Of a stretch of DNA of 64,000 bases, positions 10,518-43,384 are shown piece after piece; position 1 is the first letter of the stretch; every line of letters begins with the position of its first letter. Made by a program: the position numbers and the translations under genes. The stretch covers positions 106,766,001-106,830,000 of the forward strand of contig CM059431.1 in the NCBI GenBank assembly GCA_030390025.1, given 5' to 3'. The stretch comes from Squalus acanthias. Lineage: Eukaryota. Below the pieces are notes generated by a model. That model was given only the letters and a program-made list of their open reading frames with translations, was not told the DNA's origin and did not search any database.

Positions 10518-10866
10518 ATGTGAATTGCACTGAGCCACAATGTAAATGTGCCTTAACTAACATCGGACCGTAATCCAAGTCAGTCGCAGAGCAAGATCTA
10601 ACTACAGGATTCAGCAAATAATCAAAAGTGATCTTTTTTTAAAATCGCTGAATGATTCTTCTTTTCACATGTGTGGCTTGGCAGTGTCTGTGATGATAAC
10701 ACATACCTGTACTTAATCTCCCTGACTGGCTTTGTGCAGTAAGTTATCTGTGTTTGGAGAGAGAGAGAGAGAAAGAAAACACATTTTATGCTGGTTTACG
10801 GCAGTGACAGCAAAAACAACTCTTCCTGATAGATGGCCTTAGTAAATCCAACAACTTTAATTTTGA

Positions 10867-10976
10867 CAATAGCAAAATACTGCGGATGCTGGAAATCAGA
10901 TAATGCTGGAAACACTCAGCATCCGTGGAGGGAGAAATAGAGTTTCTGTTCTGGTCTGTGACCCTTCGTCAGAACT
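10867..10976 (-). mobile_element. Minimal Penelope-derived element (degenerate hammerhead + 3' tail)
   Basis: Matches the PLE 3' end (21988-22087); flanked by a perfect 14-bp direct repeat AACTTTAATTTTGA (10853-10866, 10973-10986). Confidence 0.8.
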
Positions 10977-15680: not shown

Positions 15681-15972
15681 AAAGTATATTTTGGAGTAAA
15701 AACTGGGAAGAAGTTGAGGGATTTGGTGAGAAGACTTGTGGAGGTAGTTTGACCTTTCTAAAAGGGATGAGCTTGTTGGGCAAAATGAACTCTTAAAACA
15801 TTTAGGCTAGAAATGACCATTGAAGCTATCAATGGGCAGAAGCTGAATGTGACTTTCCTGTGTCTGCTTTTTTGACTGAGGCATTAACCCATGTTAAATA
15901 AACTGATTAACACACCTGTCATTATACAGGACTTAGTAAAGCCATACAAGCACATAAAGTGTCCTGCTAATA

Positions 15973-16068
15973 AAAACAGTAAAATGCTGGAAATACTCAG
16001 CAGGTCAGGCAGCATCTGTGGAGAGAGAAAGAGAGTTAACGTTTCAGGTCGATGACCTTTCATCAGAA
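15973..16068 (-). mobile_element. Minimal Penelope-derived element: hammerhead ribozyme core + 3' tail
   Basis: Reverse complement reads TT CTGATGA A AGGTC ATC GACCT GAAAC GTT AACT...GATGCTGCCTGACCTGCTGAG; TSD GTGTCCTGCTAATA / GCGTCCTGTTAATA. Confidence 0.85.
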
Positions 16069-16974
16069 GCGTCCTGTTAATATCGCCAACAGTCATTTCT
16101 AAGCTTTTATGTTCTTCAGGGTATGTCATTTATGCCGAGAATCTTTAAGTTACGAGCAATTTCCTTGTACGCCTCTATTTTAACACGGCAGTGAGTTTTT
16201 TGCATCAACAAGGGGGCCAAAGTGCCGCTCCAGTTCTTACGAATATTATCGTTTGTAATAGATACTGCAATATTTGATAAAGTACTGGGTTTGTAACTGT
16301 TGTGATTACTGAATTTGTTGTCCTGGCTGCATTGCGAGGTAGTTCGTTCAAAGAACACTCAGCAGGTGCCAAACCAGTAATCACAAAGATGCCACGTTTA
16401 GCAGTTGCCCAACATGGGGCTCCAACCCCACCAGTGAGAGAGACGTTTCACCTGTCACAGTAAAGCACAGCTCACAGGAAGCGGCTTTGTCAGAACAAAG
16501 CTGCTTAGCAATGCGCTGCCTCATTTCATCCTCAACATGTACCTGTGTGTCACCAGTTACAAAGCTGAAATGTACCGCTGTCTCCGTCCGTCAATCACCA
16601 AATGAGTTAAGAATCATAATTAATTTTTTTAATTAATTTTCTAAATTTTCTAAGCGCGGGCGTTTTAATGGTGAAAATCCTCTTACAGTTCTGAAGAGGC
16701 ATTGAGCCTGATTTTCGACCACACATCTGCCCCACCATTGGGCAGGTCGTGCACCTTGCAAATCAATCTGATTGGAGTACTGCTGAACCTGGATGAATTT
16801 CTGTGTGCAACTAATTTACATGTTGTCGACATAAGTAGTGTGAGGTAAGTGCTGGGGGTCTCGGCAGTGGTCCAAGAGGGGAACCTGTGCACTGCGACAA
16901 CTTAAAAGGACAATAATTTTGTTTTGAATGCTGGCAGCAGAACAACTCTCTGGCTGCTGAAGGCACCAGGCACA

Positions 16975-19036: not shown

Positions 19037-21718
19037 GTGACACTGGATAGAGAGTTTGCTCCAAACACTTGCAACCTGCATAAAGCTCAGGTATCTTCCA
19101 AGACTCGGTTTCACAGCCACATTACTTTCCTCAGCAACTGTCTCCGGTTCCGACTTATCCCACGTGGATTCCAACTAAACTTCCACCCTTCGTGTTTCGG
19201 ATCAACCCAGGATTACAAATATCTCCAAGATATTCATCGTTCCTCGAACTACTGCTCTCGCCGCATCTTGAGATCCACGCTCAACGCCATGCGGCGCCAC
19301 ATGAACACTCTCGACCTCTCTCTTCAGCAGCACCGACGCACTCTATCTCAAAGCTGTCCGGGTCCACAGTTCCATTTCATCCTTAGACTCATCCGACGCT
19401 TCAACAAACAACTTTTCTTCTTCCTTTCCGATGTCAAGGATCGCAAGCTTCAACAACTCTCGGACACTAACGCCCCTCCGGAACCTTCTTCCCCTTCACT
19501 TTCCTCTGACCCCCCTTCTCCCAATCTCACCCCCTGCCGCGTTTTCACTATCCCCTCTGACCTTCCCCTCTCTGACTCCGAACGATCAGTCCTCAGCAGA
19601 GGCCTGACCTTCATCCCCTTACGCCCCCATCTCAATGAATTTCGAGCTCGGCACGATGCTGAGCTCTTTTTCCGCCGCCTCCGTCTCCGTGCCCACTTCT
19701 CTGGCCAGGAGTCTTCCCCCCGCACGGCTGACCCTTTCTCCCGCTTTCAGAATTCTTGTTCCACCTGGACCCCTCCCTCTGGCCTCTTACCCTCTCTAGA
19801 TCTTTTCATTGCTAACTGCCGCCGTGACATCGGCCAGCTCAATTTCTCTGCTCCCCTCACTCACTCCAACCTACCTCCCTCTGAACTTGCAGCACTCCAT
19901 TCTCTCCGATCCAACCCTGACATTGTCATCAAACCTGCTGACAAGGGTGGCGCTGTTGTTGTTTGGCGAACCGACCTCTACCTAGCGGAAGTTGAATGCC
20001 AACTCTCTGACACCTCCTTCTACCTCCACCTGGACCATGATCCCACTACTGAACATCAAGCCACCGTGTCCAAGACCGTCACTGACCTCATCTCCTCTGG
20101 AGATCTTCCCCCCACGGCCGCCAACCTCATAGTTCCCCAACCGCGCACAGCCTGCTTCTACCTCCTTCCCAAGATCCACAAACAGGACTGCCCCGGTAGA
20201 CCCATCGTTTCAGCCTGTTCTTGCCCCACGGAACTTATCTCTTCCTATCTCGACTCTATTTTTTCTCCCCTTGTCCAGTCTCTTCCCACCTACATCCGCG
20301 ACTCTTCCGATGCCCTCCGCCATTTTAACAGTTTCCAGTTTCCTGGCCCCAACCGTCTCCTCTTCACTATGGACGTACAATCCCTCTACACCTCCATTCC
20401 CCACCAGGATGGCCTGAGGGCGCTCCGCTTCTTCCTTGAACAGAGGCCCAACCAGTCCCCATCCACCACCACCCTCCTCCGCCTCACATTGAACAACTTC
20501 TCCTTTGACTCTACCCATTTCCTCCAAATTAAAGGTGTTGCTATGGGTACCCGCATGGGTCCTAGCTATGCCTGCCTTTTCGTGGGATATGTGGAACACT
20601 CTTTGTTCCAGTCCTACTCGGGTCCCCTCCCTCACCTCTTTTTCCGGTACATTGATGACTGTATCGGTGCCGTCTCCTGCTCTCGCCCTGAACTAGAACA
20701 TTTCATTAACTATGCTTCCAATTTCCACCCTTCCCTCACCTTCACATGGTCCATCTCCGACTCTTCCCTTCCCTTCCTCGACTTCTCCATCTCCATCTCT
20801 GGGGATAGGTTATTGACTAACATTCACTACAAGCCCACTGACTCCCACAGCTACCTGGACTACACTTCCTCCCACCCCGCCTCCTGTAAGGACTCTATTC
20901 CATTCTCCCAGTTTCTCCGTCTCCGCCGCATCTGCTCTGATGATGCCACCTTCCATACCAGTGCTTCCGACATGTCTTCCTTTTTCCTCAACCGAGGATT
21001 CCCCTCTACCGTGGTCGACACGGCCCTCAACCGTGTCCGTTCTATCTCCCGCACTTCTGCCCTTACCCCTGCCCCTCCCTCCCGGAACCACGATAGGGTT
21101 CCCCTTGTCCTCACCTTTCACCCCACCAGCCTCCACATTCAACAGATCATCCTCCGCCATTTCCGCCACCTCCAGCGTGATCCCACCACCAAACACATCT
21201 TCCCCTCACCTCCCCTTTCAGCATTCCGCAGGGACCGCTCCCTCCGCGACACCCTAGTCCACTCCTCTACCACTCCCAGCACCCTTTCCCCTTCGCCTGG
21301 CACCTTCCCGTGCACGCGCAGGAGATGCAACACATGCCCTTACACCTCCCCTGTTCCCACTGTCCAGGGCCCCAAACACCCCTTCCAGGTGAAACAGCGA
21401 TTTACTTGTACTTCCTGCAATTTAGTATACTGTATTCGCTGCTCACGATGTGGTCTCCTCTACATTGGGGAGACCAAACGCAGATTGGGTGACCGCTTTG
21501 CGGAACACCTCCGTTCAGTCCGTAAGGGGGACCCCGAGCTCCCGGTGGCCTGTCACTTTAATTCACCGCTTCACTCCCACTCTGACCTCACCGTCCTCGG
21601 CCTATTACACTGTTCCACGGAAGCGCAGCGTAAGCTCGAGGAACAGCACCTCATCTTTCGTTTAGGCACGCTACAGCCCTCTGGACTCAATATCGAGTTC
21701 AACAATTTTAGATCATAA
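19037..21718 (+). CDS. Penelope-like reverse transcriptase / GIY-YIG endonuclease polyprotein (element-derived part starts ~19091; the GTG start lies in flanking DNA)
   Basis: IKPADKGG, FYLLPKIHK...GRPIVS, MDVQSLYTSIP, GVAMGTRMGP, FRYIDD, Cys linker CTRRRCNTC, NLVYCIRC..CGLLYIGET.R.L..RF.EH, GLN; uninterrupted frame. Confidence 0.93.
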   Translation: MTLDREFAPNTCNLHKAQVSSKTRFHSHITFLSNCLRFRLIPRGFQLNFHPSCFGSTQDYKYLQDIHRSSNYCSRRILRSTLNAMRRHMNTLDLSLQQHRRTLSQSCPGPQFHFILRLIRRFNKQLFFFLSDVKDRKLQQLSDTNAPPEPSSPSLSSDPPSPNLTPCRVFTIPSDLPLSDSERSVLSRGLTFIPLRPHLNEFRARHDAELFFRRLRLRAHFSGQESSPRTADPFSRFQNSCSTWTPPSGLLPSLDLFIANCRRDIGQLNFSAPLTHSNLPPSELAALHSLRSNPDIVIKPADKGGAVVVWRTDLYLAEVECQLSDTSFYLHLDHDPTTEHQATVSKTVTDLISSGDLPPTAANLIVPQPRTACFYLLPKIHKQDCPGRPIVSACSCPTELISSYLDSIFSPLVQSLPTYIRDSSDALRHFNSFQFPGPNRLLFTMDVQSLYTSIPHQDGLRALRFFLEQRPNQSPSTTTLLRLTLNNFSFDSTHFLQIKGVAMGTRMGPSYACLFVGYVEHSLFQSYSGPLPHLFFRYIDDCIGAVSCSRPELEHFINYASNFHPSLTFTWSISDSSLPFLDFSISISGDRLLTNIHYKPTDSHSYLDYTSSHPASCKDSIPFSQFLRLRRICSDDATFHTSASDMSSFFLNRGFPSTVVDTALNRVRSISRTSALTPAPPSRNHDRVPLVLTFHPTSLHIQQIILRHFRHLQRDPTTKHIFPSPPLSAFRRDRSLRDTLVHSSTTPSTLSPSPGTFPCTRRRCNTCPYTSPVPTVQGPKHPFQVKQRFTCTSCNLVYCIRCSRCGLLYIGETKRRLGDRFAEHLRSVRKGDPELPVACHFNSPLHSHSDLTVLGLLHCSTEAQRKLEEQHLIFRLGTLQPSGLNIEFNNFRS

Positions 21719-22087
21719 CCTCAGCTCCAATCACATTTATATTTTATTTTTTCCATCCTTTTATTTGCCCCCCCCCCCACCTTTTTTTTCCTCCTAGAAG
21801 CTGGCAGCTTTCCTTCATTCTACCAGTGGATTTCACACTTCTTTCAGCCATAATCTGTCACATTAACACCACCTCTAGCCTTGCATATCTCTTAATGTCT
21901 CTTCATCTCCCCCTTTGTTCTTTTATCCCCTCCCCCTTTTCCCAGCTTTACTCTGGCCTTAAATCTATTTGATTTCCGGCTCTTCACAGTTCTGACGAAA
22001 GGTCATCGACCTGAAACGTTAACTCTCTTTCTCTCTCCATGGATGCTGCCTGGCCTGCTGAGTTTTTCCAGCGTTTTCTGTTGTTAT
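19090..22087 (+). mobile_element. Penelope-like retroelement (Neptune type), slightly 5' truncated
   Basis: RT + GIY-YIG ORF, pyrimidine-rich 3' UTR, hammerhead motif; 13-bp TSD TGCATAAAGCTCA at 19077-19089 and 22088-22100. Confidence 0.95.
21988..22024 (+). ncRNA. Minimal type I hammerhead ribozyme in the Penelope 3' end
   Basis: AGTT-CTGACGA-A-AGGTC-ATC-GACCT-GAAAC-GTT-AACT: stem I AGTT/AACT, core CUGANGA and GAAA, 5-bp stem II, palindromic ACGT stem III, GUU cleavage triplet. Confidence 0.82.
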
Positions 22088-23479
22088 TGCATAAAGCTCA
22101 ATCTGTGTTCCAAATGCAATAAGCAACAACTTCTGAGCATGGAAAGTAAAAAAAACTGTGAATTGGGAGCTTTTATAGCACATTTCAAGCTGTCAAGTAA
22201 TCAGCTGATTCAATGGCCATTCATCTCCTGCCTCAGCTTAACAGACATGATCCCTGAGCAGCGAGGACCCCAGAAGGGGGAGGGGGGGGGGGTGGGTGGC
22301 GAGCATGTAAAGTCAAAAGGTAAACTAAAATGTATTCTTAATGATGTCTAAACAAGGTCATAATGAGCTTAATTGGGTCCCGCACCGCTGCGCGTAGGGT
22401 CTGCTCAGCGCTGAAAGACCCGACATTGGGAAAGGCACGTGGTGACGGGTTGGCAGTGGGGTCCCGCCCCGTTGTGAAAAAAAACAACTTTCCCACACGA
22501 CCCGCCACCGATTCCACCCGCTGACCCCCCGGAAAATTCCAGCCGTTGGTTGAGGGATAAATATTGGCCAGGACACCAGGGATAACTCCCCTGCTCTTCT
22601 TCAAAATAGTGCCATGGGATCTTTTACATCTACCTGAAAGGGTATACTTCATCTATGGTATAAGTTTCATCATTGTACTGTATTATCATGCTGCTATTTC
22701 TTTTTGCTTAGATATATTTCTTATCTGTTCATAAATCCAAACTTGTAATTTAGCCTTTATAATATGGTACAATTTGGGCGGTCCAAATATTTGGCAGTGA
22801 ATGATTTGCCGTGATTCAGGATTATTATTTTTTTAGATTTGAGCTGCTCCAACCCATATACCACCCAAAGAATGAATACATAAGGGACTTGGTTGGTTTG
22901 TGAAAGCTGCACTCTAAGCCATGAATACAAGAAAGGATTTGGGAGAAAAGCCAGAACTCTTACAGCAGTGGGTGAGTCATAGTTTGTAGGCGAGGAGAAG
23001 GAGGTGCTGGTGCCAGAGGAGGAGCAGGAACCCCCCTGCCCTGATGGCCTCATTGGTACCTTCTCAATGACCTGTTCTACATTGAGAAAACCCACTGGCA
23101 CAGTGAAATTGGGCCACCCAAATTGTTGGCTTTGATCAACAATGCATCAGTCACTTGCTGGATACATCTGTGGGCAGAAAGTTAGATGATTCTGTTGACC
23201 TCCCCCATGCCAGCATGAAAGGACAGGAAGAAATGAATGTTGAGTGTGGGCAGTGACTTTGACTGTCACTCTCAGGGCCTTCCCTGCGGTAGACACTGGC
23301 TGCAGATTGCCTTGCAGCAGATGACAAGGCATTGCACCTGACTCCTTGCTCACCCAGAACTTATAGAGGCAGTAGATATGGGCTTGTATGCTCTGGCTGA
23401 TGGCATAATAGCTGATGCAGCCAATCCAAAATTTGGTGCCATCTGATTTCCCTGTATATCTTCCCTGTATATCTGTATA

Positions 23480-31260: not shown

Positions 31261-31446
31261 TTTTGTTTCTTCTGTTGTCTACCAATGTGCTCCAATCCAC
31301 TTATTCTGATCATTTTCCTGTGAATTTTGCCTCCCTACTTCCACAGTTCATTTTGAAGGTAGGAGCAAATTTGTCTTTTGATTGGCTGACAACAAGAGGA
31401 AGCGAGATAAGCACATGAGGGGGAAAGGAATAGAAGGGCATTCTGA

Positions 31447-34400
31447 TACTGTACCCCATCCAACTCCCCGCGCTTTCACACACACACTGTACCCCATCCA
31501 ACTCCCCACCCTTTCACACACACTCTGTACCCCATCCAACTCCCCGCCCTTTCACACACACTCTGTACCCCATCCAACTCCCCACCCTTTCACACTCTGT
31601 ACCCCATCCAACTCCCCGCGCTTTCACACACACACTGTACCCCATCCAACTCCCCACCCCTTTCACACACACACTGTACCCCATCCAACTCCCCACCCTC
31701 ACACACTCTGTACCCCATCCAACTCCCCGCCCTTTCACACACACACTGTACCCCATCCAACTCCCCGCGCTTTCACACACACACTGTACCCCATCCAACT
31801 CCCCGCCCTTTCACACACACACTGTACCCCATCAAACTCCCCGCCCTTTCACACACACACTGTACCCCATCCAACTCCCCGCACATTCACACACACTCTG
31901 TACCCCATCCAACTCCCCACCCTCACACACACTGTACCCCATCCAACTCCCCGCGCTTTCACACACACACTGTACCCCATCAAACTCCCCGCCCTTTCAC
32001 ACACAAACTGTACCCCATCCAACTCCCCGCCCTTTCACACACACACTGTACCCCATCCAACTCCCCGCCCTTTCACACACACACTGTACCCCATCCAACT
32101 CCCCACCCTCACACACACACTGTACCCCATCCAACTCCCCGCGCTTTCACACACACACTGTACCCCATCCAACTCCCCGCACATTCACACACACACTGTA
32201 CCCCATCAAACTCCCCGCCCTTTCACACACACACTGTACCCCATCAAACTCCCCCCCCTTTCACACACACTCTGTACCCCATCCAACTCCCCACCCTCAC
32301 ACACACACTGTACCCCATCCAACTCCCCGCACATTCACACACACACTGTACCCCATCCAACTCCCCGCGCTTTCACACACACACTGTACCCCATCAAACT
32401 CCCCGCCATTTCACACACACACTGTACCCCATCCAACTCCCCGCACATTCACACACACACTGTACCCCATCCAACTCCCCGCCCTTTCACACACACTGTA
32501 CCCCATCCAACTCCCCGCCCTTTCACACACACACTGTACACCATCCAACTCCCCACCCTTTCACACACACTCTGTACCCCATCCAACTCCCCGCGCTTTC
32601 ACACACACACTGTACCCCATCAAACTCCCCGCGCTTTCACACACACTCTGTACCCCATCCAACTCCCCGCGCTTTCACACACACACTGTACCCCATCCAA
32701 CTCCCCACCCTTTCACACACACTCTGTACCCCATCCAACTCCCCGCCCTTTCACACACACACTGTACCCCATCCAACTCCCCACCCTTTCACACACACTG
32801 TACCCCATCCAACTCCCCACCCTCACACACACTCTGTACCCCATCCAACTCCCCACCCTCACACACACTCTGTACCCCATCCAACTCCCCACCCTCACAC
32901 ACACACTGTACCCCATCCAACTCCCCGCACATTCACACACACACTGTACCCCATCCAACTCCCCGCACATTCACACACACTCTGTATCCCATCCAACTCC
33001 CCACCCTTTCACACACACTCTGTATCGCATCCAACTCCCCGCCGTTTCACACACACTGTACCCCATCCAACTCCCCGCACATTCACACACACACTGTATC
33101 CCATCCAACTCCCCGCACATTCACACACACTGTACCCCATCCAACTCCCCACACATTCACACACACACTGTATCCCATCCAACTCCCCGCACATTCACAC
33201 ACACGCTGTATTCCATCCAACTCCCCACCCTCACACACACTGTACCCCATCCAACTCCCCGCACATTCACACACACTGCACCCCATCCAACTCACCGCAC
33301 ATTCACACACACTCTGTACCCCATCCAACTCCCCGCCCTTTCACACACACACTGTACCCCATCCAACTCCCCGCCCTTTCACACACACACTGTACCCCAT
33401 CCAACTCCCCACCTTCACACACACTGTACCCCATCCAACTCCCCGCACATTCACACACACTGCACCCCATCCAACTCACCGCACATTCACACACACTCTG
33501 TACCCCATCCAACTCCCCGCCCTTTCACACACACACTGTACCCCATCCAACTCCCCGCCCTTTCACACACACAGTGTACCCCATCCAACTCCCCACCTTC
33601 ACACACACTGCACCCCATCCAACTCCCCGCCCTTTCACACACACACTGTATCCCATCCAACTCCCCACCCTCACACACACTGTACCCCATCCAACTCCCC
33701 GCCCTTTCACACACACTCTGTACCCCATCCAACTCCCCGCACATTCACACACACACTGTACCCCATCCAACTCCCCGCACATTCACAAACACACTGTACC
33801 CCATCCAACTCCCCACCCTTTCACACACACTCTGTACCCCATCCAACTCCCCACCCTTTCACACACACACTGTACCCCATCCAACTCCCCGCACATTCAC
33901 AAACACACTGTACCCCATCCAACTCCCCACCCTTTCACACACACACTGTACCCCATCCAACTCCCCGCCCTTTCACACACACACTGCACCCCATCCAACT
34001 CCCCGCCCTTTCACACACACACTGCACCCCATCCAACTCCCCACCCTTTCACACACACACTGCACCCCATCCAACTCCCCAACCTTTCACACATACACTG
34101 CACCCCAACTAACTCCCCAACCTTTCACACACACGCTGTACCCTATCCAACTCCCCAACCTTTCACACACACACTGCACCCCATCCAACTCCCCACCCTT
34201 TCACACACACACTGTACCCCATTCAACTCCCTAACCTTTCACACACACACTGCACCCCATCCAACTCCCCAACCTTTCACACATACACTGCACCCCAACT
34301 AACTCCCCAACCTTTCACACACACACTGCACCCCATCCAACTCCCCAACCTTTCACACATACACTGCACCCCATCCAACTCCCCAACCTTTCACACACAC

Positions 34401-35569: not shown

Positions 35570-35773
35570 GTGCCACGTGCTAGTAAGAGTACAGAGAACA
35601 GGATAGTTAGGCTAAATACGTGGCTTGAGCAGTGGTGTAAATTTTTGAGGCATTGGAACCAGTTTTGTGGTAGGTGTGACCTATACAAAAGGGACGGTCT
35701 ACACCTGTGCAAAGATGGAACTGATGTTCTCGGGGTAATTTTTGATAAAGCAGTTCGGGAGCATTTAAACTAG
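35570..35773 (+). pseudogene. CR1 ORF1 C-terminal fragment (SGNH esterase-like domain)
   Basis: VPRA...LNTWLEQWC...FLRHW...DLYKRDGLHL...LN-stop; the DGLHL motif is typical of CR1 ORF1 esterases. Confidence 0.85.
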
Positions 35774-35847
35774 TATGGCAGGGGGCTAGAAACCTATGTA
35801 GTGAAATAGAGGAAAGTGAAAGGCAGACAGAAATAAATGGTAAAAGG

Positions 35848-38715
35848 GTGAGAAACAAAAAACAAAGGGCCAAACCAATTCATAAAAAATGTGAGCATAA
35901 AAAAAGCCTGAGGGTTTTATACCTTAATGCGAGAAGCATCAGGAACAAGGTAGATGAATTAGCTGTGGAAATAGAGGTTAATAATTATGATCTAATTGGG
36001 ATTACGGAAACATGGTTGCAGGGTGAGCAGGGCTGGGAGCTTAACATACAGGGGTATTCAGTATTTAGGAAGGATCGACAAAAAAGAAAGGGAGGAGGGG
36101 TAGCATTGCTGGTAAAAGAAGGGATAAATGCAATTGAAAGGAAGGATATTAACTCAGTTAATACAGAATCTATATGGGTGGAGCTAAGAAATAGCGAGGG
36201 GCGAAAAACATTAATAGGAGTGGTATATAGGCCTCCAAATAGTAAAATAGAGGTTGGGGAGGGCATCACGAGGGAAATTAGAGAAGCGTGCAATAAGAGC
36301 ACAGCTGTCATCATAGGTGACTTTAACTTACATATAGATTGGAATAGCCTAATCAGTAAAAATAATGAGGAGGAGGAATTCCTTGAGTGTTTAAGGGATG
36401 GTTATCTGGATCAATATGTCGAGGAACCAACTCGGGAACAGGCTATATTGGACTGGGTACTGTGCAATGAGAAGGGACTAATTAGTAATCTTGTTGTACG
36501 GGGACCCTTGGGTCAGAGCGATCATAACATGATCGATTTCTCACTCGAAATGGAGAGCGAAGAAATTGACTCAGATACTAAGGTCCTGAATTTAAACAAG
36601 GGGAATTATGATGCCATTAGACGGGAACTGAGTAGGTCTGATTGGACAACGTTCCTGGGAGGACTGGAGGTAGATAAACAATGGCAAGCATTTAAAGATA
36701 GAATGACAAAATTGCAAAAATTGTTTATACCAATCTGGCATAAAAGGAAATCTAAAAAGGTGACTCAACCGTGGATAACAGGGGAAATTAGAGACAGCAT
36801 AAAATCCAAAGATAGGGCGTATAAAATAGCCAAAAAAAGCGCCAGAGCGGAAGATTGGGAACAGTTTAAGATAGAGCAAAGGAGGACAAAGGGCTTAATC
36901 AAGAGGGGCAAAATAGCTTACGAAAGCAAGCTGGCGGAAAATATAAAAACTAACTCCAAAAGCTTTTATAAGTATATCAAGAGGAAAAGACTGGTGAAAA
37001 CCAAAGTTGGCCCATTGCAGTCAGATACGGGGGAATATATACCGGGAAATAAAGAAATGGCAGACCAACTAAATGCATACTTTGGGTCAGTCTTTACGAA
37101 GGAAGACACAAAAAACCTCCCTGGGATATCGGGAAAAATAGGGACATTTGCAAAGGAGGAACTGACGCAAGTCAATATCTCTAAGGATATGGTGTTAAGG
37201 AAGCTAAAGGGATTGAAGGCGGACAAATCCCCAGGGCCTGATAACATGCATCCTAGGGTGCTGAAGGAGGTGGCCCTAGAGATAGCGGATGCACTAAGTA
37301 TGATTTTTCAGAATTCATTAGACTCGGGAACAGTGCCCATGGATTGGAGGGTAGCTAACGTTACCCCACTATTCAAAAAGGGGGGTAGGGAAAAAGCAGG
37401 TAATTACAGACCTGTAAGCCTTACATCAGTTGTGGGCAAAATGCTGGAGTCCATCATTAAGGATGAAATAGCGGAGCACTTAGCAAATGGGGACAGGATA
37501 GGACAGAGTCAACATGGATTTACAAAGGGTAAATCGTGCTTGACTAATCTATTGGAATTTTTTGAGGGAGTAACTGGTAAAATAGATGGGGGAGAGCCAG
37601 TAGATGTGGTGTACCTGGACTTCCAAAAGGCCTTCGATAAGGTCCCACATAAAAGATTAGCAGGGAAAATTGAAGCTCATGGGATAAAGGGGAAAGTATT
37701 GACGTGGATAGAGAACTGGCTGTCAGATAGAAAACAGAGAGTTGGAATAAACGGCTCATTTTCTGAATGGCAGGCAGTAACAAGTGGGGTACCACAGGGA
37801 TCTGTCCTGGGTCCCCAGCTGTTCACAATTTACATTAATGACCTGGATCAGGGAGTCGGATGCAGCATTTCCAAATTTGCAGACGACACTAAACTAGGAG
37901 GGGGGGTGGGCTCAGAGGAGGAGACCAGGAAGCTCCAGAGCGATTTGGACAGACTGGGTGATTGGGCGGATAAATGGCAGATGCACTATAATGTGGACAA
38001 GTGCGAAGTTATCCACCTTGGGTGCAGGAACGGGAGGGCAAATTATTATTTAAATGGCAATAAATTGGGAGAGGGGGAAGTACAGAGAGACCTGGGTGTT
38101 CTTGTACACCAGTCACTGAAGGCGAGCATGCAGGTGCAACAGGCGATCAAGAAGGCAAACGGTATGCTGGCCTTCATAGCAAAAGGGTTGGAATACAGGA
38201 ACAGGGATACCTTGCTGCAGCTGTACAGGGCACTGGTGAGACCACACCTCGAGTACTGTGTACAGTTTTGGTCGCCTCATCTGAGGAAAGATGTTCTTGC
38301 CATGGAGGGGGTGCAGCGGCGATTCACCAGGCTGATACCAGGAATGGCGGGATTGACCTATGAGGAGAGACTATGTAGTTTAGGGATGTACACACTGGAG
38401 TTTAGAAGATTGAGAGGGGACCTCATAGAAGTGTATAAAATTCTGACAGGTCTAGACAGACTAGATGCAAAAGGAATGTTTCCCTTGGCGGGTGAGAACA
38501 GAACCAGAGGACATAATTTAAGGATAAGGGCTAAACCATTTAGGACAGAAATGAGGGGGAATTTCTTCACTCAGAGGGTGGTGAACCTGTGGAACTCATT
38601 GCCACAGAGGGCAGTGTACGCCAGCTCATTAAATATATTTAAGAGGGAATTAGATATATTTCTACAGGCAAAAGGGGTTAAGGGTTACGGAGAGAAGGCG
38701 GGGACGGGATACTGA
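35848..38715 (+). CDS. CR1 ORF2: APE endonuclease + reverse transcriptase
   Basis: YLNARS, GITETWL, GDFN, SDH (APE); NYRPVSLTS, YLDFQKAFDKV, GVPQGSVLGP, KFADDTK (RT); 955 codons without a stop; frame open from 35749. Confidence 0.96.
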   Translation: MRNKKQRAKPIHKKCEHKKSLRVLYLNARSIRNKVDELAVEIEVNNYDLIGITETWLQGEQGWELNIQGYSVFRKDRQKRKGGGVALLVKEGINAIERKDINSVNTESIWVELRNSEGRKTLIGVVYRPPNSKIEVGEGITREIREACNKSTAVIIGDFNLHIDWNSLISKNNEEEEFLECLRDGYLDQYVEEPTREQAILDWVLCNEKGLISNLVVRGPLGQSDHNMIDFSLEMESEEIDSDTKVLNLNKGNYDAIRRELSRSDWTTFLGGLEVDKQWQAFKDRMTKLQKLFIPIWHKRKSKKVTQPWITGEIRDSIKSKDRAYKIAKKSARAEDWEQFKIEQRRTKGLIKRGKIAYESKLAENIKTNSKSFYKYIKRKRLVKTKVGPLQSDTGEYIPGNKEMADQLNAYFGSVFTKEDTKNLPGISGKIGTFAKEELTQVNISKDMVLRKLKGLKADKSPGPDNMHPRVLKEVALEIADALSMIFQNSLDSGTVPMDWRVANVTPLFKKGGREKAGNYRPVSLTSVVGKMLESIIKDEIAEHLANGDRIGQSQHGFTKGKSCLTNLLEFFEGVTGKIDGGEPVDVVYLDFQKAFDKVPHKRLAGKIEAHGIKGKVLTWIENWLSDRKQRVGINGSFSEWQAVTSGVPQGSVLGPQLFTIYINDLDQGVGCSISKFADDTKLGGGVGSEEETRKLQSDLDRLGDWADKWQMHYNVDKCEVIHLGCRNGRANYYLNGNKLGEGEVQRDLGVLVHQSLKASMQVQQAIKKANGMLAFIAKGLEYRNRDTLLQLYRALVRPHLEYCVQFWSPHLRKDVLAMEGVQRRFTRLIPGMAGLTYEERLCSLGMYTLEFRRLRGDLIEVYKILTGLDRLDAKGMFPLAGENRTRGHNLRIRAKPFRTEMRGNFFTQRVVNLWNSLPQRAVYASSLNIFKRELDIFLQAKGVKGYGEKAGTGY

Positions 38716-39585: not shown

Positions 39586-40727
39586 GTTTGCCTTGTCCTT
39601 TTGCCTTGCACCATCATCCCTTTTGTCTCTTAATCTCTCCTGCCCTCCATCCTATCACAGACCTTCCCTTTTGTTCTTTCTTCCCCTCCCCCCTCTCCCT
39701 GCCCCTACACTTGCTAAAAAACCTTTTACATCTCCAACTTTTTCCAGTTCTGATGAAGGGTCATCGACCTGAAACATTGGGGCGATTTTCCCAGCCCTGG
39801 GAAGGCGGGTATGGAGGCGGGACAACCGGCAAAATGGCAGAAACTGGGAGCGGGTACCCATCCCGCCCCCAACCCGCCTCTGTGCCATCTTCCCAGGAGG
39901 CGGGTACCCGACCAGCATCGGGTCCCGTCTCCTCGAGGCGGGAAGGGGATTAGTGCCAATTAACTGCCTGTTAACAGCTAGTTAACAGAAAGTTTTTTGG
40001 CTAATCCCTATTTTGAGCCCTAAAGTGTGGGCTTCCCGACGGCTCCGACCCTCGCCAGGGTAAGCGAGGTGAGCCGTGGGTCTGCGGGGGTCGGAGAGGA
40101 CAAAATTTCCAGTGTGCAGGTGAGTGATGAGTGCAAGTGTGGAGAGGTAAGTGTGTGAGGTGAGTCTAAAGTGTTTTAATAAGATTACTTACCTTTGCTT
40201 CTTCCTCCAGGCTTCATCCCTTTAGGCTGTGGAGCTGCCTCATCTCACCGGCAGAGAAAGCAGAATGGCCGTTGCATTCTTAAATGCTGCAGCCTTCTGC
40301 TTTCTGCTCAGGAAAGCTTTCTAAGTAAGCCTGTGTCCAAAGTCTCAACTTAGAAGATAGATTGTCAGTGTTTGACAGCTTCACAGAGCTGTCAAACGAT
40401 GACAATTCATCTGTCAAAAAATCTTGACAGATGAAACGTCATACGCTGACGTCATCTGTCACCAGCTTTCCCTTAATTGGCCGGCTAAGCCCGCTGGGCG
40501 GGCTTAACAAGGCCAATCAAGGGAAAATAGCGTGGGTTGGCCGAACGTCGATGGAGGCGGGACTAAAACCCGACAAGCAGCTTTCCCGCCTCCATCACGT
40601 CCCCATTGATAAAATCAGCCCCGTTAACTCTGTTTCTCTCTCTACAGATGCTGCCTGACCTGTTGAGTATTTCCAGCATTTTCTGTTTTTATTTTAGATT
40701 TCCAGCATCCGCAGTATTTTGCTTTTG
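39586..40727 (+). mobile_element. Penelope 3' fragment with hammerhead, inserted in a CR1 tail and itself split by a MITE
   Basis: Similar to the PLE 3' UTR; TSD TAGAAGGATAT at 39575-39585 and 40728-40738. Confidence 0.85.
39779..40622. mobile_element. MITE, Harbinger-like (second copy at 63254-64000)
   Basis: TIR GGGGCGATTTT / AAAATCAGCCCC; 3-bp flanks ATT/GTT; high similarity to the copy at the window end. Confidence 0.88.
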
Positions 40728-43222: not shown

Positions 43223-43384
43223 GGCCTCGAAATTCATCACGGGCGAAATGGCGCCAAACGGGCGGTATCGGATCGCCTGCCCGTTAAACGCAGCAACGGA
43301 ACCGAATCTCAGGCGCTGTGTATAACAGGCGGCAGATCCAATACCGCCCATTTTGCACCATCATCTGAGATGAATTTCTAGGCC
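43223..43384. mobile_element. Short Harbinger-type MITE
   Basis: 16-bp TIR GGCCTCGAAATTCATC / GATGAATTTCTAGGCC (1 mismatch); 3-bp TSD TAT. Confidence 0.85.

Follow-up and report, generated by a model that had tools for sequence, protein, structure and literature searches.

Organization of the Penelope-like element and its family

At positions 19090-22087 of the window, i.e., the whole 64,000-nt stretch of Squalus acanthias DNA analyzed in this work, we identified an insertion of a Penelope-like element (PLE), flanked by 13-bp duplications, in which the upstream pLTR is absent and a single (3') hammerhead motif is present. The coordinates of this insertion, of its parts and of other related sequences in the window were collected in Table 1.

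Table 1. Features of the Penelope-like element, its hammerhead motif and related copies in the window.
Feature	Position	Strand	Remarks
Left target-site duplication, 13 bp	19077..19089	+	Identical to 22088-22100; microhomology with the element over its last 3 bases
5'-truncated RT + GIY-YIG ORF, assigned to a Neptune-type PLE	19090..21718	+	~99% identical to intact copies
C-X4-C-X2-C linker between RT and endonuclease, CTRRRCNTC	21311..21337	+	Neptune/Nematis hallmark
Pyrimidine-rich 3' UTR, upstream portion of pLTR	21719..21987	+	Subfamily mean identity 0.61-0.66
Minimal type I hammerhead, as judged from sequence, pattern search and covariance model	21988..22024	+
Stem I, 4 bp	21988-91/22021-24	+
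CUGACGA box	21992-98	+
Extra A	21999	+
Stem II, 5 bp	22000-04/22008-12	+
GAAA	22013-16	+
Palindromic ACGU (stem III, loopless)	22016-19	+	Predicted cut after 22020
pLTR tail, short form	22025..22088	+	Ends 68 nt past the predicted cut
Right target-site duplication	22088..22100	+
Short copy, hammerhead + short tail	15969..16068	-	Begins at the ribozyme 5' edge; stem I 5' strand truncated
Short decayed copy, long tail	10866..10976	-	Ribozyme-5'-edge start; target duplication present
5' half of a split copy, older-subfamily hammerhead	39746..39778	+	Split at the cleavage triplet
Non-coding element, 844 bp	39779..40622		Inverted repeats at both termini, with GGGGC at their start; the cleavage triplet is present as a 3-bp duplication (ATT/GTT)
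3' half of the split copy: GTT, stem I 3' strand, long tail	40623..40708	+

The element contains a single ORF with a DKG motif, YIDD, the C-X4-C-X2-C linker and, at its C terminus, GIY-YIG with CCHH. The Pfam models RVT_1 and GIY-YIG match this ORF, both slightly below their curated cut-offs, and its nearest named relative among the 120 homologs listed, which comprised no named Neptune reference, is a Chiloscyllium protein (70% identity). A CX2-5CxxC linker defines Neptune and Nematis (PMC8557442), and since a preprint reports only Neptune and Poseidon among vertebrate PLEs (bioRxiv 2026.07.22.740005), Neptune may be preferred over Nematis; the label Neptune-type, as used here, thus rests on the linker motif and the vertebrate distribution.

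In comparison with four intact copies, the window ORF shows 21-34 mismatches over approximately 2,630 aligned bases, is devoid of the first 34 codons (including the ATG) and carries a 15-nt in-frame deletion within RT, near position 20482. The preliminary description of this DNA spoke of a near-intact element, which is an overstatement for a sequence that is 5'-truncated and has neither the ATG nor the upstream pLTR, besides the deletion in RT. This copy is a dead, 5'-truncated insertion and, as it holds only one hammerhead, it is unlikely to cut in cis.

The family itself is young, as its copies are about 99% alike and 7 of 12 full-length ones have an intact ORF (915-916 aa), and it is very abundant. 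The 12 full-length loci, picked for having the upstream repeat, all carry two hammerheads, located 3,189-3,207 nt apart, and the ATG of full copies lies 140 nt downstream of the upstream predicted cut. Partial tandems, inverted 5' copies and an optional tail of 30-40 bp, i.e., traits of EN+ PLEs, are all present; an inverted neighbour was found for 52 of the 169 tail-anchored copies that were sampled (100 from the start of C1 and 69 spread over C1-C3). At one copy, the inversion junction holds arrays of 47-bp and 115-bp repeats derived from RT, as though through repeated slippage of the enzyme.

Elsewhere in the window, a 988-codon stop-free frame (35749-38715, + strand), probably a LINE ORF2, adjoins CR1-like repeat ends, and a 38-bp tandem array (31400-34300) is open in all three + frames.

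The hammerhead motif

The sequence of positions 21988-22024, read from the window, consists of AGTT, CTGACGA, A, AGGTC, ATC, GACCT, GAAAC, GTT and AACT, so that the CUGANGA, GAAA and NUH core follow one another in the type I order. A 37-nt pattern gave two matches in the window versus 0.00 expected, and a covariance model constructed from 10 non-shark relatives ranked 21988-22024 at the top of the window (35.1 bits, rough E-value 7e-7), followed by 16033-16071 (- strand) and 39750-39778. A check with the Rfam hammerhead models, proposed in the preliminary description, was negative, as the scan of the window gave no match to the hammerhead families up to an E-value of 5. The previously drawn layout of the stems and core, with the predicted cut after 22020, agrees with the rereading of the sequence and with the first rank in the covariance model search, and its assignment to minimal type I hammerheads of a Neptune-type PLE, stem III being palindromic and loopless, is supported by covariation across related families. 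On these sequence grounds, we consider the motif to be a genuine minimal hammerhead of type I, located in a terminal repeat of a young Neptune-type Penelope element and of a kind already published (PMC4209133). It is unremarkable in itself, being a member of the known minimal PLE hammerheads in which one conserved pair has changed.

Amongst the copies present in the window, the hammerhead is intact only at 21988-22024. It was claimed earlier that four copies keep the stem II pairing; however, the motif is not kept in all of them, since at 10940-10976 (- strand) stem II contains GACCA and the GAAAC-GTT core is destroyed, at 16034-16070 (- strand) two of the four stem I pairs are gone (GCTT), the copy starting inside stem I, and the hammerhead at 39746-39778, together with the tail at 40623, represents one copy split by an 844-bp element. 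The C/T variation at N7 of these copies need not be a sign of a free position, since N7 sits in a CpG and deamination suffices to explain it; true freedom of N7 (A, C, T) was observed only across distant relatives.

Within the 3.7-Gb genome, the core descriptor found 62,658 matches versus 1,191 in the reversed control (approximately 61,000 above control), and the tail anchor 65,988 versus 0. Among 17 long copies of several subfamilies, taken together with the window copy, mean identity was 0.93 for the hammerhead, 0.61-0.66 for the UTR and 0.94 for the tail, the last value including the anchor used for picking copies. The preliminary description had made its claim depend on a core better conserved than the flanking UTR across subfamilies, and the hammerhead does exceed the UTR in this respect; the tail, however, is equally conserved, so that the conservation of the hammerhead across the shark subfamilies cannot be ascribed to catalysis specifically.

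A strict descriptor, applied to 80 metagenome loci of related PLEs, matched 14 times in sense and once in antisense orientation, with no match in five shuffles, and relatives with at least 300 nt of 3' sequence matched it in only 7 of 24 cases. Removal of a duplicate and a second copy left 12 loci; two of these, having a 6-nt stem III, were set aside and the other 10 aligned. In this alignment, both sides vary in 8 of 10 pairs, although the pairing counts in relatives are partly circular, because the descriptor demanded three pairs per stem and the palindrome. Features lying outside these demands are the extra A (13/13) and the fourth stem I pair (11/13), with a shuffle p of 0.0004. The covariation that was to be looked for across genomic copies is seen in the relatives, the shark family itself showing only the G·U/A-U exchange at 10.1-11.1. 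The extra nucleotide between A9 and 10.1 is A in 94/94 shark copies and in 12/12 relatives, and stem III is formed by the palindrome ACGU in the shark and by ACGU, AUAU, AGCU, ACGCGU or AAAUUU in relatives. A young subfamily with the cleavage triplet GUC instead of GUU accounts for 9 of the 94 sampled copies, and in sister subfamilies (2,295 matches versus 0 in the control) stem-loop II is one base shorter, many of them having a UUCG loop.

Insertions at the cleavage triplet

The 844-bp element that splits the copy at 39746 has inverted ends and a 3-bp target duplication, both being traits of PIF/Harbinger, and its longest stop-free frame has 68 codons; by these end features we take it to be Harbinger-like. 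Genome-wide, 1,370 copies are broken just before the cleavage triplet, and because 91 of the 100 breaks listed are preceded by GCC, GGC or CCC, some 1,250 (or more) of them may be insertions of this kind. The main inverted-repeat end was counted 95,048 times versus 3,003 in the control, which corresponds to approximately 46,000 elements, and so a few percent of the inserted elements would sit at the hammerhead GTT site. As the remaining insertion sites are AT-rich and bear 3-bp duplications, a target preference is the simple reading of this hot spot. At 43223-43384, the window also contains a 162-bp element with related inverted ends and a TAT duplication.

Ends of the genomic copies

For the description of copy ends, C3 of the hammerhead was numbered 0, so that stem I begins at -4 and the predicted cut falls between +28 and +29. 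The tails of the sampled copies end at two points, approximately 68 nt (95 of 169 copies, short form) or 102 nt (74 of 169, long form) past the cut, matching the signature reported in PMC11167929. At the other side, 52 of the 141 copies that reach +11 start between -8 and +11, and 11 of 89 within the next 92 nt, which gives a rate ratio of 15 over the upstream region (12 without inverted copies); this pile-up was found in both samples and for both tail types. Genome-wide, 770 copies start at -4 versus 71 at -8, i.e., about 7-fold more after correction for pattern odds. The ribozyme 5' edge is likely an RNA 5' end, and its sequence context resembles an initiator. The Penelope of D. virilis has an internal promoter within its repeat (PMC2377424). 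Of 20 long young copies, 19 continue past the edge of the upstream hammerhead and one stops there (p 0.004); with such an almost regular passage, a simple linear RNA with its start at -4 cannot be the sole template.

Apparent starts at the cut site amount to 309 at +29 versus 81 at +30 genome-wide (the +25 control for such counts is swamped by the inserted Harbinger-like element). Reading of 30 of these junctions revealed 6 internal indels, 6 stem I fold-backs and 7 plausible true starts, the remaining 11 being other inversions, tandem joins or different repeats. Among the sampled copies, 2 of 158 start at +28 to +30, near background and with no clear excess. A footprint of cleavage was thus rejected as a clear signal. 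Length-dependent truncation was also rejected, because copies with short and with long tails have a common stopping point. No shared spliced exon was seen upstream of the short copies, and at the putative branch point and acceptor beside the cut site the young family reads CACGG, not CACAG.

The six stem I fold-backs among the 30 junctions join an arm ending AGTT to AACT, which is a DNA image of stem I, and such inverted joins through the 4-base stem suggest fold-back of cDNA at the ribozyme 5' edge. Separately, single assembled contigs extend from the tail ends to this edge over 104 and 132 nt, being possible head-to-tail dimers of a short unit.

Predicted activity and mode of propagation

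In the 94 shark copies, the 10.1-11.1 pair is A-U in 62 and G·U in 28, still closing in both forms, and G-C in none, whereas it is G-C in 12/12 relatives. In minimal PLE hammerheads, G10.1-C11.1 is highly conserved, although not absolutely (PMC4209133). In the shark family, G-C presumably became G·U by CpG decay, and A-U thereafter. According to the energy model, the best fold of the monomer pairs UGACG with CGUUA (-9.1 kcal/mol versus -5.9 for the hammerhead fold, which has a probability of 0.002), so the monomer is predicted to misfold, with its core trapped against the cleavage strand. The double-hammerhead fold (-9.7 versus -18.2 for two monomers) is not favoured either in this model, which ignores core contacts. 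Monomers of minimal PLE hammerheads were reported to be inactive and dimers slow (PMC4209133). For PAc, the Poseidon element of Anolis carolinensis, it was described that cleavage occurs only with the element's protein and is dispensable for insertion in vitro, that uncut RNA is the main template, and that two internal RT start sites yield the optional tail (PMC11167929).

Taking the data as a whole, we regard as probable an explanation combining a dimer-dependent minimal hammerhead, copies made mostly from uncut RNA and a transcript 5' end at the ribozyme edge. The hammerhead alone would be inactive, and a slow cut after GUU would occur when both hammerheads of a full tandem element pair via their ACGU palindromes, the element's protein probably assisting. 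Most genomic copies would arise from uncut RNA, on which reverse transcription would start internally at one of the two tail sites and run through the ribozyme; about a third of the copies would stop at its 5' edge, the likely end of the transcript. A more detailed joint reading, which we put forward only tentatively, is that the first base of stem I is the RNA start and that priming of RT at the 5'-repeat tail produces a run-off cDNA of 100-135 nt, like retroviral strong-stop DNA, which may integrate as a stub, fold back via stem I or transfer to the 3' repeat, giving long copies. If this is true, the stubs are a fossil map of the transcript 5' end, and the main template in vivo is RNA that was not cut. 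Both such a template and a transcript beginning with the first base of stem I are offered as predictions.

Doubt about catalysis itself has its grounds, as G10.1-C11.1 was lost, the monomer is predicted to be misfolded, the tail equals the hammerhead in conservation and no clear footprint was seen at the cut site; moreover, Naiad PLEs spread without canonical hammerheads (PMC8557442), and 8 of 9 Xenopus retrozyme dimers failed to cleave (bioRxiv 2026.07.22.740005). We nevertheless consider it unlikely that the ribozyme is catalytically vestigial in this shark lineage and kept as part of a conserved signal block (a promoter, a protein-binding site or an RT start region), since the core, stems and palindrome were retained across subfamilies whose UTRs are about 60% identical, the change from G·U to A-U keeps the pair closed, and related families maintain the fold with compensatory changes.

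The remaining alternatives concern the template and its end. A 3.2-kb unit could be excised by the two hammerheads and circularized, with rolling reverse transcription producing more-than-unit copies, as proposed in PMC4209133; the occurrence of two hammerheads one unit apart in all full loci and the read-through of the upstream one by long copies, as on a template without a 5' end, would fit this scheme, but read-through transcripts or strand transfer give identical DNA, the pile-up of short copies at -4 requires a linear 5' end or a barrier there, and cleavage is dispensable in vitro (PMC11167929), and thus we find it rather doubtful. That the pile-up reflects a barrier to reverse transcription or a splice-related end, and not the start of transcription, also appears improbable to us, notwithstanding that a pyrimidine tract and CAG/TT lie at the edge in all aligned subfamilies, just before the ribozyme core, that the pile-up is spread over approximately 20 nt, and that the D. 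virilis Penelope intron ends at helix I (PMC4209133). A fixed barrier should stop the second pass too, yet only 1 of 20 copies stops; short copies have no common upstream exon and often directly abut the target duplication, and no GT..AG joint to the edge was present among the 15 of 51 joints listed, which come from contigs only and weigh little.

Comparison with known systems

In the open-access literature searched, no work dealing with this motif or with the 5' pile-up in sharks was listed, and the searchable supplements of PMC4209133 contain no mention of sharks; shark families may be listed in the supplements of bioRxiv 2026.07.22.740005. The motif resembles the minimal hammerheads that Cervera and De la Pena (2014, PMC4209133) described in pLTRs of metazoan PLEs, Xena, Poseidon and Neptune of fishes among them, in being of type I with a 4-bp stem I, an extra base between A9 and 10.1 and a loopless palindromic stem III, in occurring twice per full element and in being found mostly as dispersed single copies. 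It differs from them in the replacement of G10.1-C11.1 by A-U or G·U. The approximately 61,000 core matches in the shark may be set against about 4,000 in the coelacanth and 9,000 in X. tropicalis given in that paper, bearing in mind that the descriptors differ. This family offers a natural A-U variant of the conserved pair.

With PAc (Frangieh et al. 2024, PMC11167929), the shark family shares the presence, downstream of the hammerhead, of two 3' end points separated by about 34 nt, as well as copies that read through the cut site; no ends were found at the cut of PAc, and no clear excess of them in the shark. PAc belongs to another clade, and its ATG lies within the ribozyme and its tail within the ORF, in contrast to the shark elements, in which the ATG follows the cut; furthermore, the activity of PAc was demonstrated, whereas that of the shark hammerhead is putative. 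As in animal non-LTR retrozymes (PMC7229834; bioRxiv 10.64898/2026.07.22.740005), type I hammerheads are tied here to PLE terminal repeats; unlike retrozymes, the shark copies sampled represent PLE ends, truncated or inverted, that lie dispersed and bear target duplications.
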